Shown piece after piece: positions 1,241-48,064 of a stretch of DNA of 64,000 bases (position 1 is the first letter of the stretch; each line of letters opens with the position of its first letter). This DNA is from an archaeon (GTDB taxonomy: Archaea > B1Sed10-29 > WALL01). The stretch lies in assembly GCA_042584585.1 (NCBI GenBank), contig JBHOSQ010000002.1, positions 32,001 to 96,000 on the forward strand, in the 5' to 3' direction. The position numbers and the translations under genes are program-made. The notes beneath the pieces are model-generated. The model was not told the origin of the DNA, did not search any database, and saw only the letters and a program-made list of their open reading frames with translations.

Positions 1241-2448
1241 GAACAAAAGGACAATTCTATATTTTGATTCTGGTGTTTATGATCTCGGTAGTCGTGGGGG
1301 TTGCTTACTTCACGACCGAGTCAAAACAACTGGAACAAGAAACGGACATCGAGCAGGAGCCAATGCTGCAGACGATTATGGACGGCTACGAGTCAGAGCT
1401 GAAGGCATCCATCGAAGGCGGGCTCTACAGCGGAAACCCCGCGTTCTACCAAGAGGTAGAGGCCAAGCTCACCACCCAAGCCGCCCAAAAAGGCTACGGG
1501 TTTACTTCTGACTGCACTCGGACCCCAATCAATAGCTACAGCGAGCAAATCGACTGTGACATCGAGCTCTCGGTGGGCGAGAACGTTTTGACGACGAGCT
1601 TTTCCCACACCTATGCCGTGGAATTCGGGATAGAGCTGTACGCGGACGAGGACTACACCCACAAAACCACTTACTACGCGCCCGGCGACACGATTTATTA
1701 CCGCGTGACGTCGCCCGCGCCCAGCGACACCAACGTGACCATCAACTACCCGGACGACCAGGAAAAAGAGAAGCAGGAAAAAAGCGGCACAGGCTTCGCG
1801 AACTTCGCTACGTTCGGAACCATTGACGTGGACGAGACCACGGGCGAGTGGGAAATATCGCTGGACAGCTCGGCCGACTCCATGAGCACAGCGTTTTACG
1901 TCCAGGAGTCCGTCGTCGACATCACCACGTACGACTCAAGCTGGATTCCCCAGGACACGTTCAACCGCGGCGAAGAAGTCAAGTACCGCATCGTCGTGTC
2001 GCCTTCCGCGAACGTTTACATGGACGTCACCGCCGGCGGGCAGGACAGGGACTACGACTGGTGGAGCGATGCCCCATCAACGCTGCACGAGTCCAGCTTT
2101 GTGGTGAGCTCGGTGGAGAGCTCGGGCACCGTTTTGACTTTGACGGCGATTGAGGACGGCTACTTCGGCGAGGCGTCGGTGAACATCACTGTTTTGTACG
2201 TGCCGTACGGCGCGTTCATTCCAGTGGACCTGGAGTACGAGCACGTTCCGTTTGACGCGTTCAAGACCTCGTGTGGGTACGAGGAGTGGTACGCCGGAAC
2301 CACGACTAACAACAGCGGCGTGCCGTTCGACTGCGTGCCGACGGGCGACGCGGTGGTGCGCGTTGCGAACGAAGTCGAAGTGATTAGTGTTCCACACGTT
2401 TACGCAGACAAACTCCATATTCTTAGCTCGAGGTGTGACGATTGCTGA
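1231..2448 (+). CDS. Large prepilin-like protein with Ig-like repeats, ending in a half beta-sandwich domain
   Basis: Leader TKG|QFYILILVFMISVVVGVAYF. Two similar Ig-like units (YYAPGDTIYYRV / TFNRGEEVKYRI). C-terminal FIPVDL...GVPF...DKLHIL segment (see findings). Confidence 0.8.
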   Translation: MEIGTKGQFYILILVFMISVVVGVAYFTTESKQLEQETDIEQEPMLQTIMDGYESELKASIEGGLYSGNPAFYQEVEAKLTTQAAQKGYGFTSDCTRTPINSYSEQIDCDIELSVGENVLTTSFSHTYAVEFGIELYADEDYTHKTTYYAPGDTIYYRVTSPAPSDTNVTINYPDDQEKEKQEKSGTGFANFATFGTIDVDETTGEWEISLDSSADSMSTAFYVQESVVDITTYDSSWIPQDTFNRGEEVKYRIVVSPSANVYMDVTAGGQDRDYDWWSDAPSTLHESSFVVSSVESSGTVLTLTAIEDGYFGEASVNITVLYVPYGAFIPVDLEYEHVPFDAFKTSCGYEEWYAGTTTNNSGVPFDCVPTGDAVVRVANEVEVISVPHVYADKLHILSSRCDDC

Positions 2449-2825
2449 AAGTAATTAGTGTATTGTTATTGGCAGCCCTTTTGGTTGGCTGTACAAACAC
2501 GGAGGAAGCCCCGGAGCCGACGGCAACGCTGGAGCCATTCGTGTCCCCCACGCCAGGGACATCAACAGCCACGGCAACACCAACAGCCACACCCGAGCCA
2601 ACGCCAATTCCCATTCCAACTAAAACATTCACCACGCAGTACGAAGTCTGTGAAGACCTTACTGAAACATGGTACTGCCTCACCGACAACGGCCTTGTGA
2701 CGTGCACGCTCACGGGCATCAACGCGCCGAGCTACACGCCCAGCGAAATCACAGTTACGTGCTTCAACTTCGACTCACTCGAAGAAACAGAAGAATTCGT
2801 TATACGTGTAGGTGATTCCCAATGA
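2442..2825 (+). CDS. Lipoprotein with Pro/Thr-rich linker and small Cys-containing domain
   Basis: Lipobox LLAALLVG|C. TATATPTATPEPTPIPIPT linker. TTG start preceded by GAGGTG. ATGA overlap with the next gene. Confidence 0.75.
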   Translation: MLKVISVLLLAALLVGCTNTEEAPEPTATLEPFVSPTPGTSTATATPTATPEPTPIPIPTKTFTTQYEVCEDLTETWYCLTDNGLVTCTLTGINAPSYTPSEITVTCFNFDSLEETEEFVIRVGDSQ

Positions 2826-5800
2826 AATGGCTCTTTGTTTTTGTTATAGCACTGCTATTGGTGACTGTGACAGTCGAGGCACTGGGCACGGAAATAACGC
2901 TCAAAACCAGCTACGCCAGCGCCGACTCGCCCGGGGGCGGCCCAGGCGCGAAAAACGTGTGGCGGGACCGCGATGGATTCTACCACATTATTTTCCATGA
3001 TGGCACGAACGACAAGCTCTACTATACTTACAGCACTTCAACCGAGCCGACGAGCGCGGCCCACTTCATTACGCCGGTAATCATCTTTAATAGCGCGGAG
3101 AGGGGCTCGATGTGGCTCGACGTCTCGAGTGGCATCATCCACCTCGCTTATGCCGAAGTAGACGCGAGCCCGAGGCTAGTCTACGCAAAATGCGACACTG
3201 ACGTCGGGTGCACTAGTGGCTGGACCTCGGTCGGCACAATTTACAACGGCCAGACCTATGGCTTGGCGAGCATCGTGTACCAGCAGTACACCGACATGGT
3301 AACGCACTACATAACGCACTTCGTCTACGTAAAAGACACACTGCGGTACCGGGTTTACTACCGGGATTACGACACCGCTAGAATCTCGCCGTACTGGGGC
3401 ACCGAGCAGATAGTCGACAACCTCCCGAGCGGCACCACGCAGCGCTACGTCCACCCCAGCATCGACAGGGACACCAGCGGAAGGATACACTTAGTCACCC
3501 GGACGTGGGTTGACGGCGGTGCACTCAGCACCAGAAAATGCTTGTACACCGCATCGACGGACGCCGGCCAGACCTGGAAAAACCTTGCCGGGTCAGTCGG
3601 GTACAACGACCTGCTCAGCAGCAACTACGTAGAAGCCTGCTCCATAAATGTCCCATCCCCCGCCAAAAGCTCGAGCTACCAAGTGCCACACGTCGCGATT
3701 GAAGGGGCCAGCAGCCACACCCAGTGGCACACGAAAGGAAGCGCGCTGACCGGAGGCACGTGGAGCACCCCATGGAGCTACTACACCAGCTATGCGAACT
3801 GGGGGAACCTAGGGAGCGACATCAACGGCAACACGTTTTATAGTTATTCTAGACGGAACGGCGTCGTCGGCTATGTCTACGCCAGGCAGCGAAACAACGC
3901 GGGGGCCTGGCAGACCCAAGACACACTACACGCCAGCGGCAACAGCGCGCACCAAGTGATGGAGGCGCACGCGCCGCTCTGCAGCCGGGGCGACATCGGC
4001 GTGCTCTACGGAGCCACGGGAACCAGCACCCTTTACTTCCGCACGATAGACGGCGCGTACAGCGAATGCAACACCCCGCCCACGCTCAGCAGTGTCACGG
4101 TCTCAACAGACCCAATCCAGGGTGGGGGCGAACAAACAGTGACTCCAAGCGGCCAAGGCGACGCGGACTCTGACCCGCTGAAGTTTGTATGCTGCATCGG
4201 AGAAGGAGCGTCATGCACGCCCACGACCGGGAACACCGTCTGTAATGAAGGGCAGACCACGTACTCATCCCCGTACTCGTCCATGACGTGCACGTACGAC
4301 GCTACTGCCGGGGCAACCCAAAGTGAAGCCGCGTACTGCCGCACGTACGACGGCACTGAATACCACATGGAAGTTGGTGGCGCAAACGACGCTTATGACG
4401 TTGACTCAGACGCGCCAGTGACGACTGACAACGGGGTCGCCGACAACTGTTACGGTGGGGACTGGAGCTTAACTCTCTCACCGACCGACGCTGGTGCCGC
4501 AAGCGTTGACTGGACCAAGTACTGCGTCGACGATGTGTCCAACGACTGCACGCCAAGCACGACTGGGACTTCGGTGCCAACTGACTGTGGCGCCGGCAAC
4601 GCGTGTGACGTCTACGTGCGCTACCAATCACAGGACACGGTCGGCAACCTTGAGAGCGTGAAGTCCAGTGGAAACATTAGCATCGACCGCGCGCCCCCGA
4701 ACCCGTCAAGCATCACTGGCATAGTGCCAAGCGCGGGCCAGCTCGCCGTTACCGCGTCGCAGGTTACGGACGTTGGGTGCTGGGGCGACAACTGGTACTA
4801 CTTTACTTGTGCATCCGGCGCGTGCAACGACCGGACATGGACACTGAACGACTGGACCCACACCGACGTGGGGCTCGCCCCAGCAACGGAATTCTGTTAC
4901 ACCATTACAGTGAGAGACGGCGCGACCAACACAGGCAGCGCGTCTTCACAAGTGTGTGGCATCACGCCCGGGAACCAGCCAACGAGCATGTCGGCGACTG
5001 CGTCCATAGCCGCGCCGCTTAACTCGGAAAGAGGCAACGTTGACTTGTCGTGGAGCGCGAACAGCAACCCCGGCGGAACTATATACTCAATAGAGCGCGA
5101 CCAGGCCTGGATTGCAAACACGACGAGCACGACGTATACTGACACGGCCGGCAGCGACAACACGGAGTACTGCTACCGCGTGCGCGCGGCGCACCCGAGT
5201 GGCTCATACGGAAGCTACAGCACGGAAGAGTGCGCGATGACCGCTGACCGCACTTCCCCCGCGACGCCCAGTCTGACTGCGGCCGCGGACAACGTGCTGA
5301 ACCAAGTAAACTTGAGTTGGGACCAGGGCGACGACAACTTGGTCGGCTACTGGCCGTTCGAGGAAGGCAGTGGCTCATCAACTGATGACTGGAGCCCGGC
5401 CGGCGGCGACGGCACGCTGCAGGGCCCGGACTGGATTAGTGGGCAATACGGGCGGGCGCTGGACTTCGTGCTCGCAAACACGGATTACGTTGACGTGCCT
5501 TCGGGGGCGTTGCTGGACCTAAGCGCCGGGACCAACAGCTTCACAATAGTCGGGTGGATAAATCCGGACCTGTCGCAAGACGTTGGGCCGATTATTTCCA
5601 CGAGGGACGTGATAAACGGCGTGGTGACCAAGGGCTACGGATTCGAGACCAACATAAACACCGCGAACGGCATGAAGGTGAACAGCCTACGGCTGGTGCT
5701 CGGCACTCCAGCGTGGAAGTGGAACGTGTGGGGCTCGGAAACAAACAGCCTCGTGCCGGGGTCGTGGCAGCACGTCGCGGTTGTGGTGACCGGCACTAAT

Positions 5801-8800
5801 ACGGCGTCGAAGACAGTGCAGTTCTACATCGACGGCGTCGAGTCCAATACATATTACTGGACAGCAAGCACAGAAACAGATGTATTGCTTTGGGGTGACA
5901 ATCCGTTGTCGAACCGCATCGGCGGGTACTATCCCGCGACTTACCCACCGTATGGCGTCGGCTACTTCGACGGAAGCATTGACGAGTTAAGGGTTTATGC
6001 CGGCAAAGCGTTCACGCAAGAAGAAATATTCAACGACATGGAGTCAGGGCTAATCACGCACGGCGTGCACAGGGGCGCGACTTCCTGGGAGTACGGGCCG
6101 GCCGACGGGCTAGCCGACAACTTCAGCGACGGAGACTACACAAATGACCCCACGTGGACCGTGCCCGTTGGCACCTGGGCCGTGAGCTCGGAAAAACTGA
6201 CACAATCATTCACGGGCGGCGGCTGGACAAAGATAACCGCCGGGAGCTCCAGTTGGGACGACTACGTGTTTTCTGTCAAAGTAAAGCCAACCACCATCAC
6301 TGAGACGTATCCAAACGTTGGTCTCATGTTGAGGGCGCAGAACTCTAACACGTACTACGGTATCTTCCACCACCAAGACGACAACACGTGGAGAGTTTAT
6401 GACTACCAAGATGCCGCGTACATATTCACGTCAAGCGCAATGAGCCTAGCCATGAACGAATGGCACGAGCTGAAGGCAAAAGTAGTGGGAGACAACCTCA
6501 AGTTCTATGTCGACGGAGTGCTGGTCGCGGACCTAACGGACAGCACAATGTCCACAGGGTACATCGGCCTGCTGACGCTGTACACCGCCGCAGAATTTGA
6601 CGACATCAAAGTAACACCGCTCATCGCTGACGACGAGTACGGGGACAGCGGCGCGGCAGATACCACTGCACCGAACAACGGCGCGACGCCCACGATTGAC
6701 CAAATCGCGATTAACAGCATGCGCGTGAACTGGGGCACGTCCGCGGACAACGGCAACACCTGGTACCACTACATCACGGCCTTCGACGACGAAGGCAACG
6801 AAGACAACATTTTCCACGACGGGGGATGCGAGAAGGGCACGAACCCATGCTACTTCAAGGCTGGGAGCCTCGTCAGCAGCGGGTACACAGTGGACAGCTC
6901 TGTCGCGTACACTGGTGGATACTCTGTCCGGCAGGACACCTCCTCAAGCACCAAGTACTTCGGCTCGGACTTCATCATAGGCACTGACATTGAGCCGAAC
7001 ACAGACTACATCGCAGAGTGCATGGTGAAGACTGCTTTGTCCGCGGGATACGCGAGGATATACCCAGAGCACCAGTTTACGACCCTGCACTTCAACAGTG
7101 TGAGCGGCACAACAGACTGGACGAGGATACACACGTCATTCACCTCCGGTGCCTCGGGCGACGTGCGCCTCCTCCGGTACACAATGGGGACCGCCACCGG
7201 CCAAACGTGGTGGGACGACTGCACGCTCCACAAGCTCACTGAGACCACAGTTACTACCGGCGTTGGCTCGGACGACTATTATGTCTACAACACAGTCGGC
7301 AGCGGCGATGGTGGGACGAACAGTAGTTGGCAGGCGACCCCCTACACCGACACCAGTCTGTCGGCTAACACTCAATACTGTTACAAGGTCCGCGCAAGAG
7401 ACAATGCGGGAACGCCGAATGTCGGCGACTTCGGCTCGCAGACGTGCAAATGGACCCTCCCGGAAGACCCTGACGCCATCTGCACGTCCGGCCACGTGGC
7501 TGGCACATGGAGCAGCAACAACGACCCCTCCTTCACCATCGACGGCGATGCAAACGCGTACCACTACGATTGGAACGGCGCGTCAAGCGACACGATTACC
7601 ACCGGTGACTCGACAATCACAAGCCCACACACGTTCACGGACACCGCGGACGGCACTTGGTACCTGCACCTCATAAGCGCGAACCCAGACGGCGCAGTCA
7701 ACCCCGGGGGCACGCAAACATTCTCGGTCGGCGGGTGGAAGATAGACGCCACTGCGCCGACATCAGTCAGCACAAGCGGGGGCACGGCGGGCTGGCAGAA
7801 CACCGCCGCAAGCGCGGGCGTCTCGTGCAGCGACGCGACCAGCGGGTGCGACACAAGCACTTATAGAGTATACAACCGCGGGAGCGCGGGGGCGTGTGAC
7901 ACCAACTACGCAACTTACACGCAAACAGTGCCGTACTCCGTCACGAGCCAGCAGTGGATATGCGCCGCGGCAAAAGACAACGCGGGCAACGTAAAGTACC
8001 AAGGCACCGCAACCGAGTTCCAGGTCGACATGCTTGACCCCACCACGAGCGACAACGCGGACACGGTGACGTGCCACAACATCGACCAAACAGTGACGCT
8101 GACTCCAGGAGACACCGGCGGGTCAGGGCTCGCGGACACTGATTACTGCGTTGACACCGGGAACTCTTGCACCCCGACCACAAGTGGCACAAGCGCGAGC
8201 GTCACGTGCGCCGACGGCGGCTATTGCCAGCAGTACGTGAGGTACTTCTCTACTGACACAGCGGGCAACACCGAGACAGTGAACTCCGTGGGCACCATAA
8301 AAATCGACAAGGCTCCGCCGAGCACGCCGAGCATCACCGTGATAACGCCCGGCAGCCAGCAAATTGCGCTCACGTCAAGCGTTGTGAGTGACGTTGGCTG
8401 TGAAGGCGGAGTACAGTACTACTTTGACTGCGTGTCCGGTGCTTGTAACGACCGGACCTGGGCGTCCGGGAACACTTACACCGACACTGGCTTGGCCGAT
8501 AATACTTACTACTGCTACAAAGTCAAGGCAAAAGACGCGAACAACAAAGAGACTGTGCTGTCCGCCCAACAATGCGCGTGGACCACCACTCCCGCGCCGA
8601 CGCTGGACTCCGTGACTGCGGAGGAGGACGGCCTGCTAGTCGCACAGAAGGACAGCCTTCTTATTGACTGGACAGGCAACGGCGCCACTTCGTACGACCT
8701 CGAGAGGACGACAGACACCACGACCGTTTACTCAGGCGGCAACACGGACTACACAGACCTAAACCTCGACGACAACAGCGAGTACTGCTACCACGTGCGG

Positions 8801-11800
8801 GGCGTTGACGGCGGAGGCACGCCAGGCAGCTGGTCAAGCACAGTGTGCGGGATTAATGCCGACCGCACCGGGCCCACGAGCCCGGTCTACAACGCGACCG
8901 GAACACAGGGCAATCCGGCGACTGACTGCGTGCACATTCTTGAAGAAAGGGGAGCGGTGGCGAGCGGCGTGTACTGGATTGACCCACTGCAGGACGGCGG
9001 GGGATTCGAAGTATACTGTGACATGCTTACTGACGGCGGCGGCTGGACGCTCGTGGACAACGACGCGGTCAACGCAGAAGTATTCCTTTCCCGTGAGCCA
9101 ATAGCGAACACCGACCCCGGAATAACAGCTGGCAAGTATTTGCAGGAGTGGGCGTGGGGCCCACAGCCAAGGCTCATGGTCAAGAGCTCAGTGTACAATG
9201 GAGACTTGAACTGGGTTACGTTGATTCCGTTGACTGCGTTTGCCAACGAGTACCCGACCGTGACCACTCAGCCGACCAGCGAGCCAGACGCGTGGGCGGC
9301 GGACAAGCTGAACGGCAACATGTGGAACGACGGCGGCTCCTGGATTTACTCCGGGTCAGGAAGGTTTGGCTCGGTGTGGATTGGGAACGGCGGCGCGCCC
9401 ACCGCAGCGTGCAACTACGCAAGCACGAAAGTGAGTGGGCTCGGCACGTACGCCAACGGTGACGTCTCGACGTGCTCTACTTGGGTGCGGCCGCGTGACC
9501 CACCAGTGCCCGCGAACAGTGTTTCGTTCGAGTGGACCCAGGGCGACTCGAACCTAGTGCTTTACATGCCGTTCGAGGAAGGCACTGGAGCGGCGACGGA
9601 CGACTGGAGTTCCAGCGAAAACGACGGCACGAAGATTGGGACCTGGACAACAGGGAATACAGACACATACACTGGAGGCGCACTGAACTTTGGCGGCAGT
9701 AGCGAGTATGTAAATATTCCGTACGACGCGAGCCTTGCACCCGACCAGCTGACGGTCATGGCGTGGTTCAACGCGGACGCCTTTGTCAACAACCAGAGAA
9801 TAGTCTCGAAGACAGAGGGTGGCGGATACCAGTTAAGCATTAACGAAGCGGCCTGCCCCGGAGAAGTATGCATGCTCGTCCATACTGGGAGCTATCACGT
9901 TGTCAGCTACGCACATTCAAACTTGAACACTGGCCAATGGCATCACATGACAGGAACATACGACGGCAGTACCGCGAAGCTGTACATAGACGGCGTTGAA
10001 GTAGACTCCAACTCAAACCCCAGCGGCAACATTGTGTACAACGCGAACAACCCCTTGTGCGTCGGGGCTGAAGCCACTTCAAACAGCTGCGGCGGCGGGT
10101 ACCAATTCCTTGGAGAAGTCGACGAAGTCCGCGTGTACGACACGGCACTCACGCAGCGCGAGATAATCGATGCGATGCAGTCGGGTGTAATAGGCCACGG
10201 AGTGCTGCGGGCCGACAACAATGCAGGAGGCGCCACGTACACGCCTGTCGGCGGGCTGATTAGCGCCACCAGCGGCACACTCGCGCCAGAAGACTATGTT
10301 CAAGACTTCTGGCTGGAGTTCGACTCCATGGAAGACGTGAGCGGCGGCGAGGCGTGGGAAGTGCAGTTCAAGGACGGTGGCGCCTTTGAGTACATTGTCG
10401 ACAGGACATCGCTCACCAATGTGCGGCTGCAGAACACTGCTTGCGGCGGCACGCAGCAATCATTCACCGCGCCAATCGGCCAAGGAGTGTGGGAAAACAT
10501 AGACATAATCAAGCACGGCGCCGACATTATGATTTATCAGGACAACGTATTCGTCGGCGAGACGACCCTCCAGTCCTGCAACGACCCATTCGACACAATC
10601 ACAATCAGCGGCGAAGGAATGAAGAACATCAGGCTCGTGCCGTTCAACTACGACAACGAGATTACCGACACGGTTGCAAAGGACGAGACCGGGCCCAACA
10701 CGCCAAGCGCGCCGACTGTCACGGCGGTGTCAACCAGCAGCCTGAGTGTTGATTGGACTGAGGTCACGGACAACGGCGACGACTGGTTCCACGTTGTTAC
10801 TGCATGGGACGACAACGGGAACGACGACAACATACTCAACAACTGGCCCAGCATCAAGGAGTACTACGGGCTTGCGGGATATCCCTTCTGGAGCGACGCC
10901 ACGCTCCGCAGCAGCGGGCGCGTTGAGCCCGGTGAAAGGATAATGATACAGTTCTACGAAAAGCTCCACCCCCTCTCGGCCGCGGACAGTGACTGGGTGA
11001 GCTGCTACATATATGAAACCGGGCCATGGGCAAACTCGTGCAGCGACTCAAGCGCCGCCACAACATGGGACTGGGGACAGTGCAACCGCATCGTGGGCAC
11101 TGGCGGCACGGACTACGTGGTCGGCTGCTACCACGGGCCCAACAACGAGCACACCGCAGACGGCGCATATGTGCGGGACCTACGGCTCCGCAAAGTCCAC
11201 GAGGAAACCGTCATCACAAACACAAAAGACTACTACGTCGCCGGGACGAGCCTGAACGCGTGGTACACGAGCGGCGCGCAGGCCGCGGGCAGCCTCTCGA
11301 GCAACACGCAGTACTGTTACACTGTCAAGGCGCGGGACAACGGGCTCAACGAGGGAACGGCGAGCGGCTCCGGGTGCAAGTACACCTTGCCGGTCGACCC
11401 GACGTTCTCGGTGAGCCACACCGCGAGCCAATGGAGCGCGGACGACACCGTGGAATTCACGGTCAGCAACTCGGACGGCGCTACTTACTACTACGTTTGG
11501 GACCAGAACCCGGGGACAAACCCAACCGGTGGGACCACGTGGGACGGGACACTGCTCACCAAGACCGCGACTGCGGACGGCAACAACTGGTACCTCCACG
11601 TTGTGGCGGAAAACCCGGACAACGCCCAAAACCCGAATGGCGCAGAGCACCTCGGGCCGTACTTCATTGACACGACCGGGCCGTCGAGTGTTAGTACAAC
11701 TGGCGCCCCGGCGGGATGGCAGAACACTGACGCCAGTGCGAGTGTTTCGTGCAGCGACGCGAGCAGCTTGTGCGACTCGGCGACTTACAGGGTTTACAAC

Positions 11801-12328
11801 CGCGGGTCGGCGGGGGCGTGCTCGACGACGTACGGCGACTACACGCAGACAGTGGCGTATTCAGTAACAAGCCAGCAATGGATTTGCGCGGCCGCGAAGG
11901 ACAACGTGGGCAACACCGCGTACCAGGCGACTGCCACGGAATTCATGGTCGACAAGACCGCGCCCGGCGCGCCTGCATTGACAGTGGTGCAGTACACCAG
12001 CGCGACGTGCCCAACGTTCCAGTGGGACGAGGCAGTCGACACCGGTGGCTCAGGAATAAAGGACTACGAGCTTGAGGTCGCGAGGGACAATAATACTTGG
12101 GTGACAGACCCGGTGGGGCTTGACAACGACGGGTTCGACACCGGGTGGATTGCGCAGGCGACGTACTGCAATGGTGTCTCGTGCTCGTACACCCCAAGCA
12201 CAACACACGAGTGCTCAGCAGGCATGTACGGCGGGGGGACTGCTTGCTTATGCCAGGGCGCATGGTACTGGAGAGTGAGGGCAAGGGACGCGTCACAAAA
12301 CGAGGGGCCTTGGGCAGAAGAAGAGTGA
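2822..12328 (+). CDS. Giant secreted adhesin 1 (3168 aa): N-terminal BNR/sialidase-like propeller, FN3/Ig repeats, 2 LamG, DUF1080-like, CBM-like and fibrinogen-related domains
   Basis: Sec signal MKWLFVFVIALLLVTVTVEA. Asp-box STDAGQTW. Repeated YCYxVxARD FN3 motifs. LamG motifs LVGYWPFEEG...WQHVAVV...FDGSIDELRVY. Fibrinogen-like SGVYWIDP...VYCDMLTDGGGWTLV. No C-terminal anchor. Confidence 0.9.
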   Translation: MKWLFVFVIALLLVTVTVEALGTEITLKTSYASADSPGGGPGAKNVWRDRDGFYHIIFHDGTNDKLYYTYSTSTEPTSAAHFITPVIIFNSAERGSMWLDVSSGIIHLAYAEVDASPRLVYAKCDTDVGCTSGWTSVGTIYNGQTYGLASIVYQQYTDMVTHYITHFVYVKDTLRYRVYYRDYDTARISPYWGTEQIVDNLPSGTTQRYVHPSIDRDTSGRIHLVTRTWVDGGALSTRKCLYTASTDAGQTWKNLAGSVGYNDLLSSNYVEACSINVPSPAKSSSYQVPHVAIEGASSHTQWHTKGSALTGGTWSTPWSYYTSYANWGNLGSDINGNTFYSYSRRNGVVGYVYARQRNNAGAWQTQDTLHASGNSAHQVMEAHAPLCSRGDIGVLYGATGTSTLYFRTIDGAYSECNTPPTLSSVTVSTDPIQGGGEQTVTPSGQGDADSDPLKFVCCIGEGASCTPTTGNTVCNEGQTTYSSPYSSMTCTYDATAGATQSEAAYCRTYDGTEYHMEVGGANDAYDVDSDAPVTTDNGVADNCYGGDWSLTLSPTDAGAASVDWTKYCVDDVSNDCTPSTTGTSVPTDCGAGNACDVYVRYQSQDTVGNLESVKSSGNISIDRAPPNPSSITGIVPSAGQLAVTASQVTDVGCWGDNWYYFTCASGACNDRTWTLNDWTHTDVGLAPATEFCYTITVRDGATNTGSASSQVCGITPGNQPTSMSATASIAAPLNSERGNVDLSWSANSNPGGTIYSIERDQAWIANTTSTTYTDTAGSDNTEYCYRVRAAHPSGSYGSYSTEECAMTADRTSPATPSLTAAADNVLNQVNLSWDQGDDNLVGYWPFEEGSGSSTDDWSPAGGDGTLQGPDWISGQYGRALDFVLANTDYVDVPSGALLDLSAGTNSFTIVGWINPDLSQDVGPIISTRDVINGVVTKGYGFETNINTANGMKVNSLRLVLGTPAWKWNVWGSETNSLVPGSWQHVAVVVTGTNTASKTVQFYIDGVESNTYYWTASTETDVLLWGDNPLSNRIGGYYPATYPPYGVGYFDGSIDELRVYAGKAFTQEEIFNDMESGLITHGVHRGATSWEYGPADGLADNFSDGDYTNDPTWTVPVGTWAVSSEKLTQSFTGGGWTKITAGSSSWDDYVFSVKVKPTTITETYPNVGLMLRAQNSNTYYGIFHHQDDNTWRVYDYQDAAYIFTSSAMSLAMNEWHELKAKVVGDNLKFYVDGVLVADLTDSTMSTGYIGLLTLYTAAEFDDIKVTPLIADDEYGDSGAADTTAPNNGATPTIDQIAINSMRVNWGTSADNGNTWYHYITAFDDEGNEDNIFHDGGCEKGTNPCYFKAGSLVSSGYTVDSSVAYTGGYSVRQDTSSSTKYFGSDFIIGTDIEPNTDYIAECMVKTALSAGYARIYPEHQFTTLHFNSVSGTTDWTRIHTSFTSGASGDVRLLRYTMGTATGQTWWDDCTLHKLTETTVTTGVGSDDYYVYNTVGSGDGGTNSSWQATPYTDTSLSANTQYCYKVRARDNAGTPNVGDFGSQTCKWTLPEDPDAICTSGHVAGTWSSNNDPSFTIDGDANAYHYDWNGASSDTITTGDSTITSPHTFTDTADGTWYLHLISANPDGAVNPGGTQTFSVGGWKIDATAPTSVSTSGGTAGWQNTAASAGVSCSDATSGCDTSTYRVYNRGSAGACDTNYATYTQTVPYSVTSQQWICAAAKDNAGNVKYQGTATEFQVDMLDPTTSDNADTVTCHNIDQTVTLTPGDTGGSGLADTDYCVDTGNSCTPTTSGTSASVTCADGGYCQQYVRYFSTDTAGNTETVNSVGTIKIDKAPPSTPSITVITPGSQQIALTSSVVSDVGCEGGVQYYFDCVSGACNDRTWASGNTYTDTGLADNTYYCYKVKAKDANNKETVLSAQQCAWTTTPAPTLDSVTAEEDGLLVAQKDSLLIDWTGNGATSYDLERTTDTTTVYSGGNTDYTDLNLDDNSEYCYHVRGVDGGGTPGSWSSTVCGINADRTGPTSPVYNATGTQGNPATDCVHILEERGAVASGVYWIDPLQDGGGFEVYCDMLTDGGGWTLVDNDAVNAEVFLSREPIANTDPGITAGKYLQEWAWGPQPRLMVKSSVYNGDLNWVTLIPLTAFANEYPTVTTQPTSEPDAWAADKLNGNMWNDGGSWIYSGSGRFGSVWIGNGGAPTAACNYASTKVSGLGTYANGDVSTCSTWVRPRDPPVPANSVSFEWTQGDSNLVLYMPFEEGTGAATDDWSSSENDGTKIGTWTTGNTDTYTGGALNFGGSSEYVNIPYDASLAPDQLTVMAWFNADAFVNNQRIVSKTEGGGYQLSINEAACPGEVCMLVHTGSYHVVSYAHSNLNTGQWHHMTGTYDGSTAKLYIDGVEVDSNSNPSGNIVYNANNPLCVGAEATSNSCGGGYQFLGEVDEVRVYDTALTQREIIDAMQSGVIGHGVLRADNNAGGATYTPVGGLISATSGTLAPEDYVQDFWLEFDSMEDVSGGEAWEVQFKDGGAFEYIVDRTSLTNVRLQNTACGGTQQSFTAPIGQGVWENIDIIKHGADIMIYQDNVFVGETTLQSCNDPFDTITISGEGMKNIRLVPFNYDNEITDTVAKDETGPNTPSAPTVTAVSTSSLSVDWTEVTDNGDDWFHVVTAWDDNGNDDNILNNWPSIKEYYGLAGYPFWSDATLRSSGRVEPGERIMIQFYEKLHPLSAADSDWVSCYIYETGPWANSCSDSSAATTWDWGQCNRIVGTGGTDYVVGCYHGPNNEHTADGAYVRDLRLRKVHEETVITNTKDYYVAGTSLNAWYTSGAQAAGSLSSNTQYCYTVKARDNGLNEGTASGSGCKYTLPVDPTFSVSHTASQWSADDTVEFTVSNSDGATYYYVWDQNPGTNPTGGTTWDGTLLTKTATADGNNWYLHVVAENPDNAQNPNGAEHLGPYFIDTTGPSSVSTTGAPAGWQNTDASASVSCSDASSLCDSATYRVYNRGSAGACSTTYGDYTQTVAYSVTSQQWICAAAKDNVGNTAYQATATEFMVDKTAPGAPALTVVQYTSATCPTFQWDEAVDTGGSGIKDYELEVARDNNTWVTDPVGLDNDGFDTGWIAQATYCNGVSCSYTPSTTHECSAGMYGGGTACLCQGAWYWRVRARDASQNEGPWAEEE
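7742..8030 (+). repeat. Intragenic ~290-bp domain duplication (second copy ~11666..11954)
   Basis: Both copies encode AGWQNT.ASA.VSCSDA.S.CD..TYRVYNRGSAGAC.T.Y..YTQTV.YSVTSQQWICAAAKDN.GN. Confidence 0.85.
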
Positions 12329-12332
12329 TACA

Positions 12333-12893
12333 ATGGCTAAGAAGAAAAAGATCAAGGTCGACCCCAAAGTTTGGTGGGTGGTCGGAGGAATAATAGTGGT
12401 TGCAGTCATAGCAGCGGCATTCCTCATGGCCAGCGACCAGGGAATAATCAAGCCAATCACGATTCCGGGGCTGCCCGCGGGCCCGGAGCAGCCAATAAAG
12501 CTGTGCGACTACAACGGCGTCTGTGACGGCGTGGAGACGCGCGAGTCGTGCCCCGAGGACTGCATCGAGCCGCAAGCGCTTTCAGTGGAACGGGACGAAG
12601 AGTCCCCTGTGACTGACTCGACGCCAACAGTCGAGATACTCATGGAAAGCGGGACCGGCGTCGCGTCTTGTGGGACGGGCACAAACGACGCCACGCAGTG
12701 GGAATGCGTTGTGGAGGAGCCGGGCGCAATCAGCACAATGGTGCGGTGCACGCTACTGAATTATCATTTTGACGGCAAGTACATGCTTGCCTTGCGGTGC
12801 AAGGACAACAACGGCGCTGACTTGCCCATGCAGCTCATTGACGACACAACGGTTTGTGCGGACCCCGTAACCGGATGCGGGAGGTGGCTCTAA
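12333..12893 (+). CDS. Membrane-anchored Cys-rich protein
   Basis: Basic N-terminus plus one TM helix (VWWVVGGIIVVAVIAAAFLM), a Pro-rich linker, a CDYNGVCDGVETRESCPEDC Cys repeat and an Ig-like C-terminal domain. It abuts the next gene. Confidence 0.75.
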   Translation: MAKKKKIKVDPKVWWVVGGIIVVAVIAAAFLMASDQGIIKPITIPGLPAGPEQPIKLCDYNGVCDGVETRESCPEDCIEPQALSVERDEESPVTDSTPTVEILMESGTGVASCGTGTNDATQWECVVEEPGAISTMVRCTLLNYHFDGKYMLALRCKDNNGADLPMQLIDDTTVCADPVTGCGRWL

Positions 12894-15800
12894 ATGAAGT
12901 ACGCCGCATTGTTCGCGCTGCTTTTGATGGTCAGCACAGCCTTTGGCTTATTGATAGTTGACTGGAGCCCGCCGGACGGGACCATAACGCTGTACGACAC
13001 ATGGAACCAAGATGTTAGCTACGGCAGGGGATGCAACAGCCCAATTTGTGATAACTACCCCCCGGGCGTGGACGGGCAGGTCACCGTGAACTTCACGAAC
13101 GTGACTGATGCATACGAAGGGCAAGCAGTCGCCGTGGCCGGACTGGAGAATTGTTGGATAACCGACTGTGAATTGCTGGACAAGACCGGCTGCCCGGCGT
13201 GCCCGTACGTGAGCTGCGAGGCGTATAGCCCGGACAACGCATTCTTTAACTACGGCGACCCCGTGGACGGGTCAAGCGTCGACTGGACCACCATTGAGGG
13301 CACCGGCGACCAATACGACACCCACTTGGCACACGAGCTTTGGACCGAGGGGCCCGGCACCGACTGGTCGCCATCATGGCCCACACTCCTCCCGCAACCG
13401 AACGAAGGCGTTAGGACGATTAAAGCAATTTGCGCAGACAAGGCGGGCAACATTGCCATCCAAATGCAAGACGACATTTATGGTGACTTTGTGGACCCAT
13501 ACGCCACGATTAGTTACAGCGGCGGATACCAATCAAGCACCAGCATAAGCATCACACAGACTGCCTCGGACCAAGGCAGGAGCCCACCACCGGACCCAAT
13601 AACACATGACACGCAACGGGACCGCGCCGTGATGGCGGACGGAGTGCTGGGAGCGTGGGAAGGCTGGTCCACCATTGACACCAGCGGCACGAACTTCAAT
13701 TGGGACGGGCCGGACTGCTACGGAGTCAAGCTCAGGTACCGCAGCCACGACGTTGCGGACAGGTATAGTGATTGGGAAGACCCAAGTATTACAGTATATA
13801 TAGATACTAACACCCCTGGTGCAGTTGGGTCGCTCACCTCGACCTCGCACCCCCTTGGCACCACTGCGTACGCGAACCAGACCGCGACATTCACGTGGAG
13901 CGACCCGCAGCCGTGCAGCGGGACGCAGTACTACGCGACCGCGGTGACGCAGAGCTCGTCGCACTCGTGGACTGGGACCGAGCCGACGTCGGCCGGCACG
14001 AGCAACGTGACGACCGGGTTGGCCGAAGGGACTTGGTACTTCCACATCCGGTCGCGGAACAACGCTGGCACGTGGGGGACCGCGGACTCGTTCATGATTA
14101 ACGTTGACTTGGGGGCGCCGACGCCGAACCCCGCGACGGTTGCGAGTGTGGTCGTGGACTCGGACACACAGGTGACTGTCACCGCGACCACGGCGACTGA
14201 TGCGTTCGCCCCGATTTATTACCGCGCGAACGAGACGACTGGAAACAGCGGCGGCACGAACTTCACGTGGCAGACAGGCACGTCGTTTGTTGACGGCGGG
14301 CTCGCAATAAGCACGCAGTACTGTTACATTGTCCAGTACAAGGACAAGTGGGACAACGAGGGCGCGTGGACCACGACACCAGTGTGTGACTACAGCAATG
14401 CAGCGGTGCCCGGGGCGCCGACAGTGACTCTCTTGCCAGAGAGCAGCCCATTGAACAGCGGGCTCACGATGGCGAACATCGTTATCGACGAGAACGGGAA
14501 CCCGGCCACAGTGCTCTACAACATAAAAGACGTGGCCACCGGACTCCACGTACAGGCGGACGGAACGCTTGGAGCCAGCGCAGCATGGATGAGTTATGTA
14601 AACTGGGGCGGCTCGAGCGGGATTGACGTAACGCTCGAGGACGATTTTGTGTACTCATTCGCTGTAAAGGCGAATGGGGGCGGAGGGGACTTCAGTGCTT
14701 ACGGACCGGCGATTACTGTGACAGCATTGGACAGAACCGGACCGTCGCCAGTGGACTTGACCGCGACAGCGGACATCGCAAACAACCGTGTCAACTTGAC
14801 GTGGCCGTGGGCAAGCGATGAGATAGCACCGGATATTGACTCCGGATTGGTTGGGCACTGGGAGCTGGAGGACAACACGCTTGACAGCTCAGGCAACGGG
14901 CACGATGGAACCAACCCACTGGGCATTTCATGGGTGGACGGGATACAGGGACAGGCGGGCCACTTCGTAAACGGCCGGACGGCGACGGACATAACCACTA
15001 ACTACTTGCCCTTGACGGTGAGTTTTTGGGTCAAGGAAGACGCAAACACATGGGAGTCCTCCGCCGCAATCGGAAAGCGCGACGGGTCTAGCGGGTGGAT
15101 GTTTTACCGCAATCCCACGTGGGGAGACGGCAACCTTGGGCTCTTGACCTATTACGTAAACACTGACCCCATCACCACAAGCTACATCAACTACGTTTAT
15201 GGGCTCAACGACGGCAATTGGCACCACATCGCGTTCACCATTGAGAACGGCGTGACGACGACTTACAAGGATGGCGTGCTGAACGAGCGGTACGTCATGC
15301 CTAACTTCGACTACTGGCTCAACAACTCCCAGGGCATAAGTCTTGGCTCCGAAAAGGCGGGTAGTGCGAGCTGGAACTTCGACGGGTACTTGGACGACAT
15401 GCGCGTGTACGACCGCTTGCTCACGGAAGACGAAATAAAGGCTTTGACACTCGTGGGGCAGTGGCACTTCGATGAAGGCACTGGCACGGACGCGTTCGAC
15501 GCGAGTGGGTTCGGAAACGATGGGACGATAACTGGAGCCACGTGGGCTGACGGCGTGCACGGCAGCGCGCTTGACTTTGACGGGGCTGGCGACTACATCG
15601 ACGCTGGCACCGGGAACGGCTTTAAGATGGAGGACGGCGCCTTCACGTTTGAGGCAATGGTCAAAAGCGATGGGGGGATTGAAGCTTCTCCAGTCATTAT
15701 GCAAAGAATGTATAACGGAGACTGCGGCGGCTCATCCAATAGCGATGCCATGCGGCTTGGGACCACCCACACAGCCGGCTCTGGCAACCCCGAGTACCCA

Positions 15801-18800
15801 CTGTTCTGGGTCAGGGACAAAAACGGCAACTCGGCGACCGCCACCTCAACCGTCGACATAAACGACGGCAAGTGGCACCACGTGGCAGGCGTGAGGACTT
15901 CTTCAACAATATACATTTACGTTGATGGAGTTGAGACAGGCACTGCCTCCGCAAGCAGCATCGGGGAGATCTGCCCAACAAACCCGTTTGTAATCGGCAG
16001 GCACAGCAGCTCAGCCCAGCGCTTCAACGGAAAAATTGATGAGGCACGCGTGTGGCGCAGGGCGTTGACAGCGTCGGAGCTGCAGTCGCGCGCTTGGTAC
16101 ATGCCGTTCAGGTCTGCGATGCTTGAAGCGAACTATGATGCAATCAAGGGCGCGGCCGACGACTTCAGTGACGGGGATTACACGAGCAATCCTGTGTGGA
16201 CGCCGGGCATCGGTGGGAGCACATGGGGCGTCGAGAATGGGCAAGTGTTTACACAAAGCACGACCGCCTCTGAAAGCTCGCTCACGCTCACAGAAAACAT
16301 CGCGGCGGGCGAGCCGTTCGTGATGACCGTGGACAAGGTCACTGACTGGGCTGAAACCGGAATCCATGGCGGAGGACATTACATACGGCAATACACCGCA
16401 GGCAATTACCAAGTCTCGGGAGTGACCATACCCCACGCCTATGCCCAGCACTGGCGGCTAGAGTTCGACGGCACGACGTACAGGTTCTACTTGAACGACG
16501 AATTAATCCGCGAGTGGGCAGGCAGCAGTAACGGAATATTCGACCTTTATGACGACAGGAACGCTGCGAGTGGCAAAGTGTACTACGACAACGTCAAGGT
16601 TTATTCGCTGCAGGGCAACAGCTACGAGGACACTGACGCAAGCGACACCGAAGCGCCCGACACGCCAGGCGCGCCGACGCTCACCGCGTACAGCACTTCC
16701 ATACTAGGAGTCGCGTGGACAGGTGTGAGTGACACCGGCAACGACTGGTTCCACTTTGTCAAGGCGTTTGACACAACTGGGAACGAAGACAATTACCACC
16801 CGAGCAACGGGCTGGTCAGCTACTGGCCGCTCGGCGACGGGAGCACGGGCAGCGCAGACGGCGCGGTGACGCTGAACCGCGAGAGCACGGACCACGGAAC
16901 TGTGTACGGCGCGACGTGGGTCGATGGCGAGTACGGTAGTGCATTGGACTTCGACGGCGCCGACGACTACGTCACCATCGCCAACACGCACGCATTCGCG
17001 AACGACGACTTTAGTTATACCTTGTGGTTCAAGGCGGACACGCCGCAGGACAACTGGCAGGGCATTATGCTCCAGAACAACTACCACACCGGCGCGCCGA
17101 ACACGTTCTTCGTAGCCGCAATCAGGGGCACGAACGACCCGCCGAACCAGGACAAGGTGCAGGTGTACGACAGGTACAACGGCATCAACGTCGCCGACTA
17201 CTCGGACGGGCTTTACACCGACGGCGAGTGGCACCACTTGGCGGTCACTTATGACCGTGACGGCATGAGGCGGTTCTACATAGACGGCGCGTTCCAAAAA
17301 GAGACAGACATAAGCCCGCACATCGCCATCGCGTTCCAGACCGCGCCGCTGCAATTGGGGCGGGACCTCACTGGCGCACAAGGCGGAACCACCGGTGGAG
17401 TATACGCGTACGATGGCTCGCTCGACGAGATATTGATGTACAGCCGCGTCTTAACACCTGAAGAAGTCGCGGGCATCTACCACCGCGGCTTGATACAGCA
17501 AAGCACGGTCACGACCGGGATTAATGACTACTACGTGAACGGCACCTCACTGGACCAGTGGTACACCACATCACCGCAGAACGCGACCAGCCTCGGTACG
17601 AACACGCGGCACTGCTACAACATAACGGCGAGGGACAACGCGCTTAACGTCGGCAACGTGGGCGGCACGCAGTGCAACTACACGCTCGCGGTCAAGCCAA
17701 GCATCCTGGCTGGGTCCATGGTCTGCGACGGCAACACCAGCAGCGGGTACAAGTGTGACGTTCCCTTCAGTATGGGCGACAACCCGCTTTATACAGAGTA
17801 TTATATAACCGCGACGAGCACCGACGGCGGAACAGGATTCACGGACTCTGGGTGGATTACGGTAAGGGAGACCTATGTTGATACGGGCCTCGACCCGCAC
17901 AAGACGTACTGCTACAAAATCAACGCGAGAAACGGCGACGGAACACTCACCGGCCAGTACACCCAGGTGTGCAAGACCGTAGCCAACAACGTGCCAACGC
18001 TGGGGAGCGCGACCGGCAACACGGATCCAATCAAGGGTACGGCCCAGCAGACGCTTACAATCGGCGGGGTTGACGACCTGGACCAGGAATTGCTATACAT
18101 CCACTGCTGTACGGACGAGGCCAACACGTGCACGCCAACTAACATCAACGACGTGTGCAGCAGCAACGATGCCCATCCATACTCGTCGCTGTCTTGCTCG
18201 TATGCCACTGGTGGCGTGACGACTCGGACCGAATACGTGCGGTGCGTCACAAACGACACTCATGACGTTTCCACGCCGGTGACGAGCGACTCTTACCTCG
18301 TTGACTCGGTTGCGCCGACGACGACGGACAACCACAGCGCTGGCAGCTGCAACGCCGTCGACCAAGTCGTGAGCCTTTCTGCTGGCGACGATGTTGGAGG
18401 AGTCGGCGTGGACTCGACGCTGTACTGCGTGGACACGGCAAACACTTGCAACCCTGTGACAAGCTATTCGGCTCCGGTGACAGTGACTTGCTCGGCAGGC
18501 ACCGCGTGCACCAAGTACTTGAGGTACAACTCAAGTGACGTGGTGGACAACCAGGAAACGGTCAACAGCGCTGCCGTCCAAATCGACAAGTCCAATCCAG
18601 ACGACGGCGTGATAGCGAACATTGTGTCGCTCGGCACGGACAGCCTTAGGGTCACGGCCACCGCGGGCACAGACGACGGGTGCGGAAACTCGAGCCTGCA
18701 GTACTACTTCACCTGCCAATCCGGCGCGTGCAACGATGGCACGTGGCAAAGCGGATTGGTTTATGACGACAGTGGGCTGTCGCCGGCGACTGAGTATTGT

Positions 18801-21800
18801 TACAGTGTCAAGGTCCGGGACGACGCCGGCAACGAAGGCGCGGACTCCGCGGACACGTGTGCGTACACCGACGCGAGCGTGCCGACGATGGACTCCATCA
18901 CGGCAGAGGGCACGCCGCTTAACTCTGGAATCGGGCGAGTGGAAGTCAACTGGAGTGGCAACCCAGCCGGAACTGACTACGAAGTGCAGCGCGACAAGTT
19001 CTTGACGAGGTACAGCGGAACAAACACGGCTTATACTGACACTGGACTGGACAACACATGGTACTGCTACCGCGTGCGGGCCCAGCCGTCGGGAGGCTCG
19101 TGGAGCGGCTGGAGCAACGAATTGTGCACGGTTACTTTGGACAGGACTGGGCCGTCGCCGCCGAACTTGACTGCGACGCCGGACAACGTGAACAACCGCG
19201 TTGACTTGGACTGGACGTGGGCGAACGACGAAATCGCGCCGGACATTGACAGCGGAATGGTCGGGCACTGGAGGTTCGAGGAGGGCAGCGGCATAGCGAC
19301 ATATGACTCATCAGGAAGCAACATCGATGGGACTATAGTCGGCACCCCACAATGGGTTACAGGCCTAGCAGGCAACGCAGTCCAGCTGGACAACAGCTAC
19401 ATCAATCTCGGGGACGCTCCAACACTAGACATAGCTACTGAACTCACTTTATCCATGTGGGTGAAGCCAGATGCGTTTGTTGTGGACAAGTTCCTGTTCG
19501 GCGGCTCATGGAGTTACCACGGCTATTCCCTGCGCTTCGATGATGCCGATAACTCGCAGCTGGAATGGTATGTTGGTGACGGAAGCGCGTATCATTTCTT
19601 CACCTACCCCCACGGCATGGTAACAGGAAAGTGGTACAATATCGTATGCACTTATGACGGAACCGAAGGCAAGGTGTTCGTGAACGGGAACCTGATTGGC
19701 TCAAGAATCGAGCCGTTCATACCGGACGGCGCGTACATACAGGACCACGTGATTGGCACGGACGGAAGCAAGGCAAAACACTTCACTGGAACCATGGACG
19801 ACGTTCGCGTGTACAACCGCGCGCTCACCGACGAAGAGGTGAAGTGGCTGACTCTCGTCGGCCAATGGCACTTCGATGAAGGCACTGGCACGGACGCGTT
19901 CGACGCGACTGGGTTCGGAAACGACGGATCGTTTGTTGGTGACCCCGCGTGGACTGATGGCGTGCACAACACGGCGCTTGAGTTCGACGGAAGCAACTAC
20001 GTCAGCGCTGGAAGCAGCGAAGCCTTGAACCCGAGACAGCAGGGGTGGACCGCAGAAATGATGGTCAAGTCAACCCAGAAGAGCGGGGGCAACGGCGGCT
20101 ACATACGTGTCATGGGAAGGTACGAAGCAGGAGACTACTGGCTGCTCAGGACCCACACGAGCAGTGGTGACTACCCTGTGTTCCAGATAACTGATGGGAG
20201 TAACTCTGCCGGTGTCGCGGGCACTACAACCGTCACCGACGGCGTGTGGCACCACCTAGCGTTTGTGTATGACTACGACGACTCAAGGACATACATCTAC
20301 ATAGACGGAGTTGAAGACGCGGCCAACGATTGGACTGGAACCTCAATGGGGGACATCAACCCAAGCACTGCCCTCCAAATTGGTCAATCACAAGCAGCCA
20401 ATGAAGGATACAGCGGCAAAATCGACGAAGTCCGCGTGTGGAGAAGGGCATTGACCGCGGCAGAGATACAGGCACGGGCGAAGTACGGGCTGTATCGGGC
20501 TGCGGCGCTTGACGGGGCATACGAGCCAGTTGACGGGCTGTGGGATGACTTCGATGGCGCGGCTGTGGACACGGCTACGTGGACCGAACTAACTACCAAC
20601 GACGCATCCATAACAGTGTCCAACAGCGAAGTAACACTCGACGACAATACGGGGATAGCCCACCTAACCACACAAGAAAACTTTGGGGTGTATGGAACAC
20701 TTGAGTTCGACCTCAAGGCAAACACTCCCGAGCCGGGGTCCACTTGGTACAGAATAGCCAAAGTCCCAAACACGTTCTATGTCGACGCCGGCAACATTTT
20801 CTCTATATGGATGACCGGTGGAGTTCAGCTTGGCATAGTAAACGACTACGAATTCCATAACTGGAAGTTCACTTTGGACGGGACGCACATACGGGTTGTC
20901 TACGACGGCAACGTGATATACACGGCGGACCAGGCCAGCAGCCTGGGGACCATCCGCTTGGGCAACGACTTCAGTACCGAACACGGGAACATGGTGTTCA
21001 AAAACGTTAAGTTCACGCCGCTGATTAGCACGAACACATACCAAGACACTGGCGCGAGCGACACGGCAGGGCCGAACACTCCTGCAGCGCCGACTGTATT
21101 GCCCATCAACAGCACCGCAATGCAGGCCTCGTGGAGTGGAGTGGGAGACGTCGGCACCGGGTGGTGGCACTACGTCAAGGCGTTTGACTCGGAAGGCAAC
21201 GAAGACAATTATCACGACAGCAGCGAGCTCATTGGCTACTGGCCGTTCAGTGAAGGCAGCACGGGAAGCGCGGACGGAGTGACGACGTATGACTCCGTTG
21301 GCACCAACGAGGGCACGGTAAGCGGTGCGGCGTGGGCAACAGGCGCTTACGGCACAGCACTTGATTTCACTGGCGGAAACACAGACAAAGTAGCACTGGC
21401 CACTCCCCTCACCCAAACAGTGTGGAGCACGACCTTCTGGGCGCGGCAAGACGCCGGGGCAGACATCAAGGGAATGATAATGGGCGACACCAGCAACACA
21501 ATCAGCTTCATATGGTTCTGGGAAGGCAGCTACTTCAGGTTCAGGTCCAACAGTGGCACTCTCGACTGGCCAGAGCTGACCGACTTCACGACGATGGCCC
21601 ATTATGCACTCGTGAGCGACGGCGTTAGTGTAACGCTGTACAAGAACGGCGTGCAAGTCGGCAGCCCCCAGACGCCGGCATCAACAGAATTCACGGTAAA
21701 TGCGATTGGACAGGGGTACAACAACATTGACTATTCGTTTGACGGCGTGATTGACGAAGTGATGGTATACGACCGCGTGCTCACCGACGATGAAGTGGTA

Positions 21801-42208: not shown

Positions 42209-42221
42209 GTTGGCCTTGGGC

Positions 42222-45891: not shown

Positions 45892-45918
45892 ATTGCCCCG
45901 CTTGGTAACGGGGAGTGA

Positions 45919-48015: not shown

Positions 48016-48018
48016 ACC

Positions 48019-48027: not shown

Positions 48028-48064
48028 TTCAGAGTAGCATAACTTTACAAGCCGAGGGATTTCC

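Follow-up and report, generated by a model that had tools for sequence, protein, structure and literature searches.

One domain in two pieces: candidate docking of a giant adhesin onto a pilin-like protein in a DPANN archaeon

In a type IV pilus operon of a DPANN (Diapherotrites-like) archaeon, a single beta-sandwich domain appears to be encoded in two pieces by two different genes. The operon lies in a stretch of 64,000 nucleotides (the window, G000:C2:32001-96000; positions below are counted from its first letter), which is part of a 1.02-Mb archaeal genome that is 84% complete, and the nearest named homologues of the window proteins belong to 'Candidatus Diapherotrites archaeon' metagenome-assembled genomes (MAGs). 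The two genes, both on the + strand, encode a modular pilin-like protein of 405 amino acids (aa) (P0001, 1231..2448) and a secreted adhesin of 4101 aa (giant adhesin 2, P0002, 12894..25199). The last ~80 residues of the pilin-like protein and the C-terminal module of the adhesin would together make up one domain of ~160-190 aa, and we consider it probable that they form this domain in trans, thereby docking the adhesin. A sequence-only reading of the window had proposed such docking, and every computational check that was run lends support to that interpretation.

Two halves of one domain

The pilin-like protein P0001 begins with MEIGTKGQFYILILVF and carries a class-III signal that reads MEIGTKG up to the cut and QFYILILVFMISVVVGVAYF after it (MEIGTKG/QFYILILVF...). 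Within the K/R-G-Q-F signal, K-G-Q-F does not vary among 6 close homologues, nor does Q8 among 13 sequences. P0001 has the properties of an archaeal type IV pilin-like protein: the cleavage motif is accompanied by a hydrophobic helix, and the genome also encodes an assembly ATPase, platform proteins and prepilin peptidase (A24), the last by two genes elsewhere in the genome, with two PF01478 matches above cut-off. We modelled the monomer with AlphaFold2 (AF2) using a 6-row alignment. The model contains a helix over residues 5-38, a pilin-type alpha/beta head and two MG2/Ig-like beta-sandwich domains; residues 44-322 are mostly confident, with block means of the predicted local distance difference test (pLDDT) of 64-93 over residues 41-320, and a Foldseek search with this confident body matched macroglobulin-like Ig domains.

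The two Ig-like domains are followed by the first half of the split domain (residues 329-405, 2215..2445), which reads FIPVDL...SCGYEEWY...GVPFDC...KLHILSSRCDDC up to the stop codon. In the AF2 monomer, residues 324-405 have pLDDT <50 and are not packed onto the protein's own Ig-like domains, and on this prediction the pilin half would have no fold by itself. The sequence-only reading had named folding of each half alone as a point against docking; for the pilin half this was not seen. The segment is well conserved, since our alignment of it (A3) covers 10 genomes of the order with invariant G, Y, W, P, F and P, and the end of the family (...hV.A..lHIi.srC..C) is constant across homologues of 24-66% identity. 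Scans of both halves against Pfam and NCBIfam matched no model. Profile searches of the PDB with the pilin half (A3) and with the adhesin module described below (A4) gave chance-level matches only (E 0.3-0.6), and ESM Atlas look-alikes of pilin residues 320-405 offered no usable feature match, all structural rows having TM <0.5.

Giant adhesin 2 has a Sec-type signal peptide, seven Laminin_G_3 stretches, FN3-like domains and a DUF2341 domain at residues 3774-3843 (Pfam, 1.7e-20). Its part of the split domain comes in two segments, assigned with the A4 profile and hhalign. Segment 1 (23925..24104) includes LTVWYTDGTYDTFAYTPEAW...GSCGG, with LTVWYTDGTYDTFAYTPEAW starting at nucleotide 23955 (residues 3688-3707), and segment 2 (25056..25196) is the C-terminal tail KYVFYSMKDIDETKIVDEVWFATKDKWQVNAITVERA, the protein ending in ...YVFYSMKDIDETKIVDEVWFATKDKWQVNAITVERA. 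Between them lies a lineage-specific insertion of ~320 aa (24105..25055), placed in the half-domain loop by Pfam and by orthologue comparison, which holds DUF2341 (24213-24422) and a further beta-rich or LamG-like region.

We aligned the C-terminus of the window adhesin with those of its orthologues in nine further genomes of the order. The motif 'vvWYTDGtyD.F.f.p.dW...gsCg' is contiguous with the tail 'Y.YY..i..n..KivD.i.F....yQiTAiT.Ek' in 8 of the 10 orthologues, the two forming a module of ~80 aa, so the claim that DUF2341 interrupts one adhesin unit is borne out. Only the window and G002, a genome of the same genus, have an insertion between the segments (~320-335 aa); G001, also of this genus, is without it. 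In 10 genomes the operon's adhesin ends in this conserved tail motif. A4, a profile of the uninterrupted module, matched the window adhesin in two pieces, over profile positions 2-63 (E 4.1e-11, G000:C2:55925-56104) and 48-100 (E 6.9e-4), and across the window's genome it matched inside giant adhesin 2 only. Insertions at the same profile position are also present in the metagenomic proteins P0047 and P0059, with LamG_3 in both and DUF2341 too in P0059. In all, at least four proteins, including L023 1400..2734, have taken up whole domains (DUF2341 and/or LamG_3; insertions of ~320 to 580 aa) in the half-domain loop at profile position ~50-56, a pattern which suggests that this loop is a permissive site for domain grafting.

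The same domain can be found unsplit in other proteins. We searched 1.84 billion representative sequences with a module profile (A7) and obtained 159 protein matches at E<=1e-3. Among the best 150 of these 159, 13 have the module at the extreme C-terminus, 2 have it with an insertion and 135 have it internally, the internal copies occurring mostly as 2-6 in tandem with a spacing of ~180-280 aa. The unsplit domain measures ~190 aa. In tandem form (P0028-P0166) it is widespread in multidomain proteins with GH28, pectate-lyase-like, cohesin or FN3 domains; one of its bearers, Paenibacillus andongensis P0053, has GH28 and F5/8 type C domains. Scans of 8 and 3 representatives with Pfam and NCBIfam models gave no match to it, and it may deserve to be defined as a separate family. 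When unsplit representatives were compared with the PDB by phmmer, AziU2 (7wuw_A) and Azi28 (8gs1_A) were matched at E 7e-5 to 5e-4 (P0053 residues 681-822, E 7e-5; P0072 residues 438-572, E 4e-4), over the end of the first half and the entire second half. For the label galactose-binding-like, which the sequence-only reading had given to the domain, no curated model was matched by the unsplit domain or by the two halves, AziU2 and Azi28 being the only sequence relatives in the PDB.

For a direct comparison by hhalign, we used as target an alignment of 90 unsplit instances (224 columns). The pilin half (A3) aligned with columns 66-123 (probability 73%, P 3e-5) and the adhesin module (A7) with columns 129-219 (probability 98.7%, E 3.6e-16), a module placement that is partly circular because the unsplit instances were found through A7, while that of the pilin half is not. 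The two pieces are thus consecutive, non-overlapping halves on the unsplit profile, as had been read by eye. The window's own segments fell in the same order, at columns 77-120 (P 0.005), 131-150 (P 1.5e-5) and 178-213 (P 6.6e-4), versus P 0.52 and 0.38 for two control stretches of the same two proteins, and there was no mutual similarity between pilin half and adhesin module (P 0.087). Further, weak A3 matches lie in the ~100 residues upstream of module-like matches. Of the 39 A3 matches that reach the profile end, 36 finish between 1 residue inside and 14 residues upstream of the A7 match, compared with 3.1 on average and 9 at most in 1000 random placements. By these alignments, the resemblance of the pilin tail and the adhesin module to two halves of one domain exceeds chance. 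The split point lies in a hairpin loop, with the strand 'L.lLa.a' before it and the strand 'tftVtYTDG' after it.

The two parts also go together across genomes. In the window's own genome and 60 relatives, the pilin family occurs in 12 of 61, none of them outside the order. Ten of the order's 13 genomes have a full-length pilin (G000, G001, G002, G003, G004, G006, G007, G008, G009 and G011), and the adhesin module is found in exactly these ten, with an identical split point in all of them. In seven of the ten, the pilin half and the module share a contig and are one to three genes apart; in G001 and G006 they lie at contig ends in an orientation compatible with adjacency, and G003 has them on separate contigs. 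Adhesin bodies vary in length from 467 to >4000 aa. The adhesins of G004 and G009 (800 and 1108 aa) are encoded immediately after the pilin, by a gene that overlaps the pilin stop codon, so the separation of 21.5 kb to which the sequence-only reading had pointed holds for the window and is a lineage-specific trait, not a general one. Two other genomes have shortened pilins: in G010 the protein ends where the half-domain would begin and the ATPase gene comes directly next, and in G005 it is cut after the first Ig-like domain and a DUF192 gene comes directly next. Neither of these operons has an adhesin gene. G012 (61% complete) has neither pilin nor module.

The sequences quoted in the sequence-only reading are all present where it had placed them, and both genes are, as it said, intact and closely set beside their neighbours. 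A fused gene in relatives, or a split peculiar to this assembly, would have pointed elsewhere. The relatives show the same split point and no fused form, and misassembly as the cause of the split is rejected because G002, of the same genus, has the same gene order and the same split. No fused pilin with a complete domain was seen among homologues of near lengths or of 'longer' lengths (6 matches, all 405-425 aa) in word-based searches, which are weak for absence, and a full-length pilin profile run against the best 150 of the 159 module proteins gave none either. Four short module-bearing proteins were considered as pilins and none is one: P0026 is a complete protein, a small adhesin with a Sec-type signal, and P0018, P0023 and P0027, which may lack part of their N-termini, show neither a signal there nor a pilin motif.

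Predicted co-folding and competing explanations

We predicted the complex of the two halves for an insertion-free pair from G001, consisting of its module (A7 residues 24-104) and its pilin half (A8 residues 14-100). This pair was chosen because a MAFFT alignment (A6) had put the tails of the relatives onto the start of the window insertion. Three runs gave ipSAE values of 0.93, 0.94 and 0.94, versus 0.01 for the best of 3 controls, in agreement with the earlier expectation that the halves co-fold. The complex has 228-231 contacts, of which at least 98% agree between runs, and the partner reaches a pLDDT of 90-91 and the module one of 94-95; in controls with the true partner replaced, pLDDT was 39 for the pilin half and 47-58 for the module. 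The lowest-error contacts place the last strand of the adhesin (...VTAVTL) against the last (HIIA) and first (YIKL) strands of the pilin half, and the adhesin strand YNYYY also lies against the last strand of the pilin half. The interface, as predicted, is a single interdigitated core, not a side-by-side arrangement.

From these results a possible course of assembly can be drawn. The class-III signal helix would insert the pilin-like protein in the membrane with its C-terminal ~80 residues left unfolded, and Sec would export the adhesin, whose last-translocated ~80 residues (plus the loop insertion) would be incomplete as well. Outside the membrane, the pieces would fold together as one beta-sandwich that tops the two-domain stalk of the pilin, and the adhesin body would leave the domain at the very loop where the pilin chain ends. 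The otherwise anchorless 4101-aa adhesin would thus be fastened to a pilin-like subunit. Carrying the adhesin, the pilin, probably joined by two small pilin-like proteins, would next prime or cap a filament built by the ATPase and the platform proteins. We infer that the window's own pair binds and that the pilin-like protein enters the filament, where its likeliest position is the pilus tip, in company with the two small pilin-like proteins from the upstream genes.

Two further features of the pair can be mentioned. Cysteines confined to the split family, in the pilin motif S-C-G-Y (nearly invariant) and the adhesin motif G-S-C-G (invariant in 10 of 10), are located in predicted interface segments; that they form a locking disulfide is speculation. 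We also put forward, tentatively, that the two-piece domain works as a plug and socket, with the pilin offering the socket half to any secreted protein that ends in a ~80-aa plug, and with a disulfide and a post-docking glycan site possible. Since the plug tolerates loop insertions and the adhesin bodies vary, the pair would be a modular, evolvable display system.

A different placement of the complex has to be weighed. The halves might pair as proposed and the 405-aa protein act as a membrane-anchored stalk (a pseudopilin or surface anchor), the adhesin then standing on the cell surface and not at a pilus tip. We hold this to be unlikely. No major pilin was identified at the locus, and 405 aa with two Ig-like domains is large for a filament subunit, although large modular minor pilins are known at the tips of bacterial pili. 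The signal of P0001, on the other hand, is a canonical class-III signal conserved in its family, and the gene shares one operon with two smaller pilin-like genes, an assembly ATPase and platform proteins, with prepilin peptidases encoded in the genome.

It is more doubtful still that the two halves are relics of a gene fission or insertion which no longer interact and persist as spacers or in unrelated roles. Unsplit homologues do exist, and halves at the ends of a first gene and of the next large gene are what would be expected if a stop codon, a signal peptide and an adhesin body had been inserted into the loop. A useless half-domain should decay, however, and both halves are conserved across the order, with invariant core residues at pilin identities of 24-66%; moreover, their co-occurrence is complete (10 of 10 genomes), and their predicted co-fold has ~230 contacts. 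An ancient insertion or fission as the origin of the split is compatible with present docking in trans, and only the absence of interaction is truly a rival to it.

Finally, it is very improbable that each half completes itself, as a homo-oligomer or with its own neighbouring domains, and that the heterocomplex is an artefact of the predictor's memory: solved folds may be remembered, and the unsplit domain has distant relatives of known structure (AziU2 7wuw_A and Azi28 8gs1_A, E 7e-5 to 5e-4), yet AF2 left the pilin half unpacked against its own Ig-like domains, a homodimer could not rebuild the fold because the two halves are dissimilar, and genomic co-occurrence and linkage owe nothing to any predictor.

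Several points nevertheless count against docking in trans and temper the probability that we give it. All of the support comes from sequence analysis and structure prediction, and the genomes compared are incomplete MAGs (61-98%). As a lone sequence, the pilin half of the window aligns weakly with the unsplit profile (P 0.005, probability 7%), and the A3 family profile reaches a probability of 73%, not >95%. The complex that was folded is that of the G001 pair, whose pilin is 46-49% identical and whose module has no insertion. The mark used for the complex was attained by 58 of 80 solved complexes and by 2 of 110 mismatched pairs, counts that are only rough here because our own shallow alignments (8 and 13 rows) were used. 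The predictor may also join the halves by recalling the unsplit fold, which would reflect likeness and not binding. On the adhesin side, AF2 run on the last 462 residues of the window protein with a 6-row alignment gave a mean pLDDT of 37.6; this is uninformative because the DUF2341 region was itself left unfolded, and the run cannot demonstrate that the module fails to fold alone. Lastly, the truncated pilins of G010 and G005 are weak as independent evidence because each may be one deletion of adjacent DNA.

Other genes of the operon and of the window

All genes in 360..28784 are on the + strand and closely packed in the list of open reading frames (ORFs). The first of the three pilin-like genes (360..839) encodes a small protein of 159 aa with the N-terminus MTQTSKGSIGIEFVVATALFLVAF. 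It has weak Pfam matches to DUF7287/DUF7285, under the curated cut-off, and G004, G009, G010 and G005 have a counterpart with the same C-terminal motif at the same place. The second small pilin-like protein (836..1240) has its probable start at MKKGFMRILEVLIVIM within the ORF 701..1240, and conserved counterparts ending in ...VQVWY or ...VVRTWR are present in relatives. P0001 is the third.

Downstream of P0001, a gene for a 127-aa protein (2442..2825) with a lipoprotein-like N-terminus and a Pro/Thr-rich linker has a counterpart in G002; a Pfam scan gave no family above cut-off. It is followed by giant secreted protein 1 (2822..12328), of 3168 aa, with LamG/ConA-like, fibrinogen-C-like and FN3-like domains. 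Giant protein 1 thus sits between the pilin and giant adhesin 2, and it has neither the docking module nor an obvious anchor. Directly after it, 12333..12893 encodes a 186-aa protein with one N-terminal transmembrane segment; G002 has two counterparts, one next to each large gene, and the protein might be a partner or anchor of giant protein 1.

Just 3' of the adhesin lies a gene for a DUF192 protein (25142..25501; Pfam PF02643, 1.7e-17). A DUF192 gene follows the module-bearing adhesin in most genomes of the order, and it was found at the same position in G004, G006, G007, G008, G003, G001 and G005 (loci including L021, L024, L025, L034 and L040-L042); in G005 it still adjoins the cut pilin although the adhesin is absent. 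The DUF192 protein could be a chaperone or processing factor for the pilin/adhesin system.

The operon continues with the pilus assembly ATPase (25563..27212), in which a T2SSE core (Pfam, 4.6e-38) is fused to an N-terminal 4Fe-4S dicluster ferredoxin-like domain (Fer4, 1.7e-11). The orthologues of G004, G006, G007, G008, G009, G010 and G011 share a cysteine-rich N-terminus, C..C..C...CP. This 4Fe-4S extension is unusual and possibly redox-sensing. Two genes for T2SSF-type platform proteins follow (27190..27930 and 27927..28784; Pfam PF00482, 7.1e-8 and 4.5e-7).

Elsewhere in the window, a second T2SSE-type ATPase gene is found on the minus strand (42222..44729, Pfam 5.1e-19). It is adjoined by ORFs of 724 aa and 698 aa that could not be annotated (40085..48015), and two further giant ORFs of 2547 and 2514 aa (48065..63398) have CarboxypepD_reg, SpaA and Big_1-like domains, without the docking module. 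The region 40085..63398 may be a second surface-filament or adhesin locus.

Comparison with known systems

In sequence, the split pair resembles the unsplit domain, in which the motifs of both halves are found in the same order (...VDL...G.(A)YS...G.pF.lG...GQtI.lP...L.lLa followed, across the split point, by tftVtYTDGT...f...sDW...YlY.Y...n..KtV.si.LP....v.i.AiTl). Unlike the split pair, it is a single chain, often in tandem, with a longer first loop (DG...GG.DG) and without the cysteines of the split family. AziU2 and Azi28, the nearest solved structures by sequence, were named azinomycin-pathway proteins by their depositors and are not adhesins, and the split archaeal halves do not reach them directly (A3 and A4 profiles, E >0.3).

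Completion of an incomplete fold in trans is well known from bacterial chaperone-usher pili, where, in donor-strand complementation and exchange, one strand completes a six-strand Ig-like subunit and a chaperone and an usher are needed. As proposed here, the missing part is supplied by another protein, and the resulting non-covalent links are very stable. Chaperone-usher pili are, however, unrelated to type IV machinery, and in our case two roughly equal half-domains would come together with no chaperone evident.

The nearest known mechanism is that of the bacterial tip adhesins PilC/PilY1. Their last ~10 residues add a strand to minor pilins of the PilK family, in trans, and GspK of the type II secretion system supplies the same strand in cis (Ellison et al., PNAS 2026, PMC13533445). 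In both that system and the one proposed here, a large adhesin without an anchor is attached to a pilin-like subunit through its very C-terminus, and this end completes a beta structure of the subunit. The logic of cis versus trans is also shared, with the unsplit domain of other proteins taking the place of GspK. The two differ in what is exchanged. A strand of ~10 residues is added there to a folded pilin head, whereas here each partner would give ~80 residues to a whole domain with a common core, a completion that is in our case a prediction (G001 pair, ipSAE 0.94 vs 0.01). Unlike in PilK, the archaeal half-domain is appended after the pilin's two Ig-like domains and derives from an accessory domain of carbohydrate-active proteins. 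Neither the PilY1/PilC nor the GspK families appeared in the Pfam results for P0002 and P0001. As for archaea, the accessible portion of the PilC study mentions them in its introduction only (PMC13533445), and that of a 2026 survey of archaeal type IV filaments has 'adhesin-like proteins' in the loci without a mechanism of attachment (PMC13705601). In the literature searched, supplementary files aside, no domain split between a pilin and an adhesin is described.

Should the docking be confirmed, it would be the first mechanism of adhesin attachment proposed for archaeal pili, and it would give a testable model for how giant anchorless surface proteins are displayed by ultrasmall archaea, including host-dependent DPANN. 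The C-terminal pattern ...YTDGT...DW...C...Y.YY...K.vD.i.F...QiTAiT.Ek would then serve as a signature of pilus-borne adhesins in these genomes. The pair would also be a rare natural case of protein fragment complementation with an identifiable unsplit ancestor, and a possible new orthogonal, genetically encoded pair for coupling proteins. Compared with the known systems, the principle, complementation docking of pilus adhesins, is an established one, and the novelty would be a half-domain contributed by each partner, in an archaeon. This would be the first docking by half-domains, and not by a single strand, in any type IV filament, with archaea applying the PilC/PilY1 principle at a much larger scale, through a whole domain divided between pilin and adhesin.

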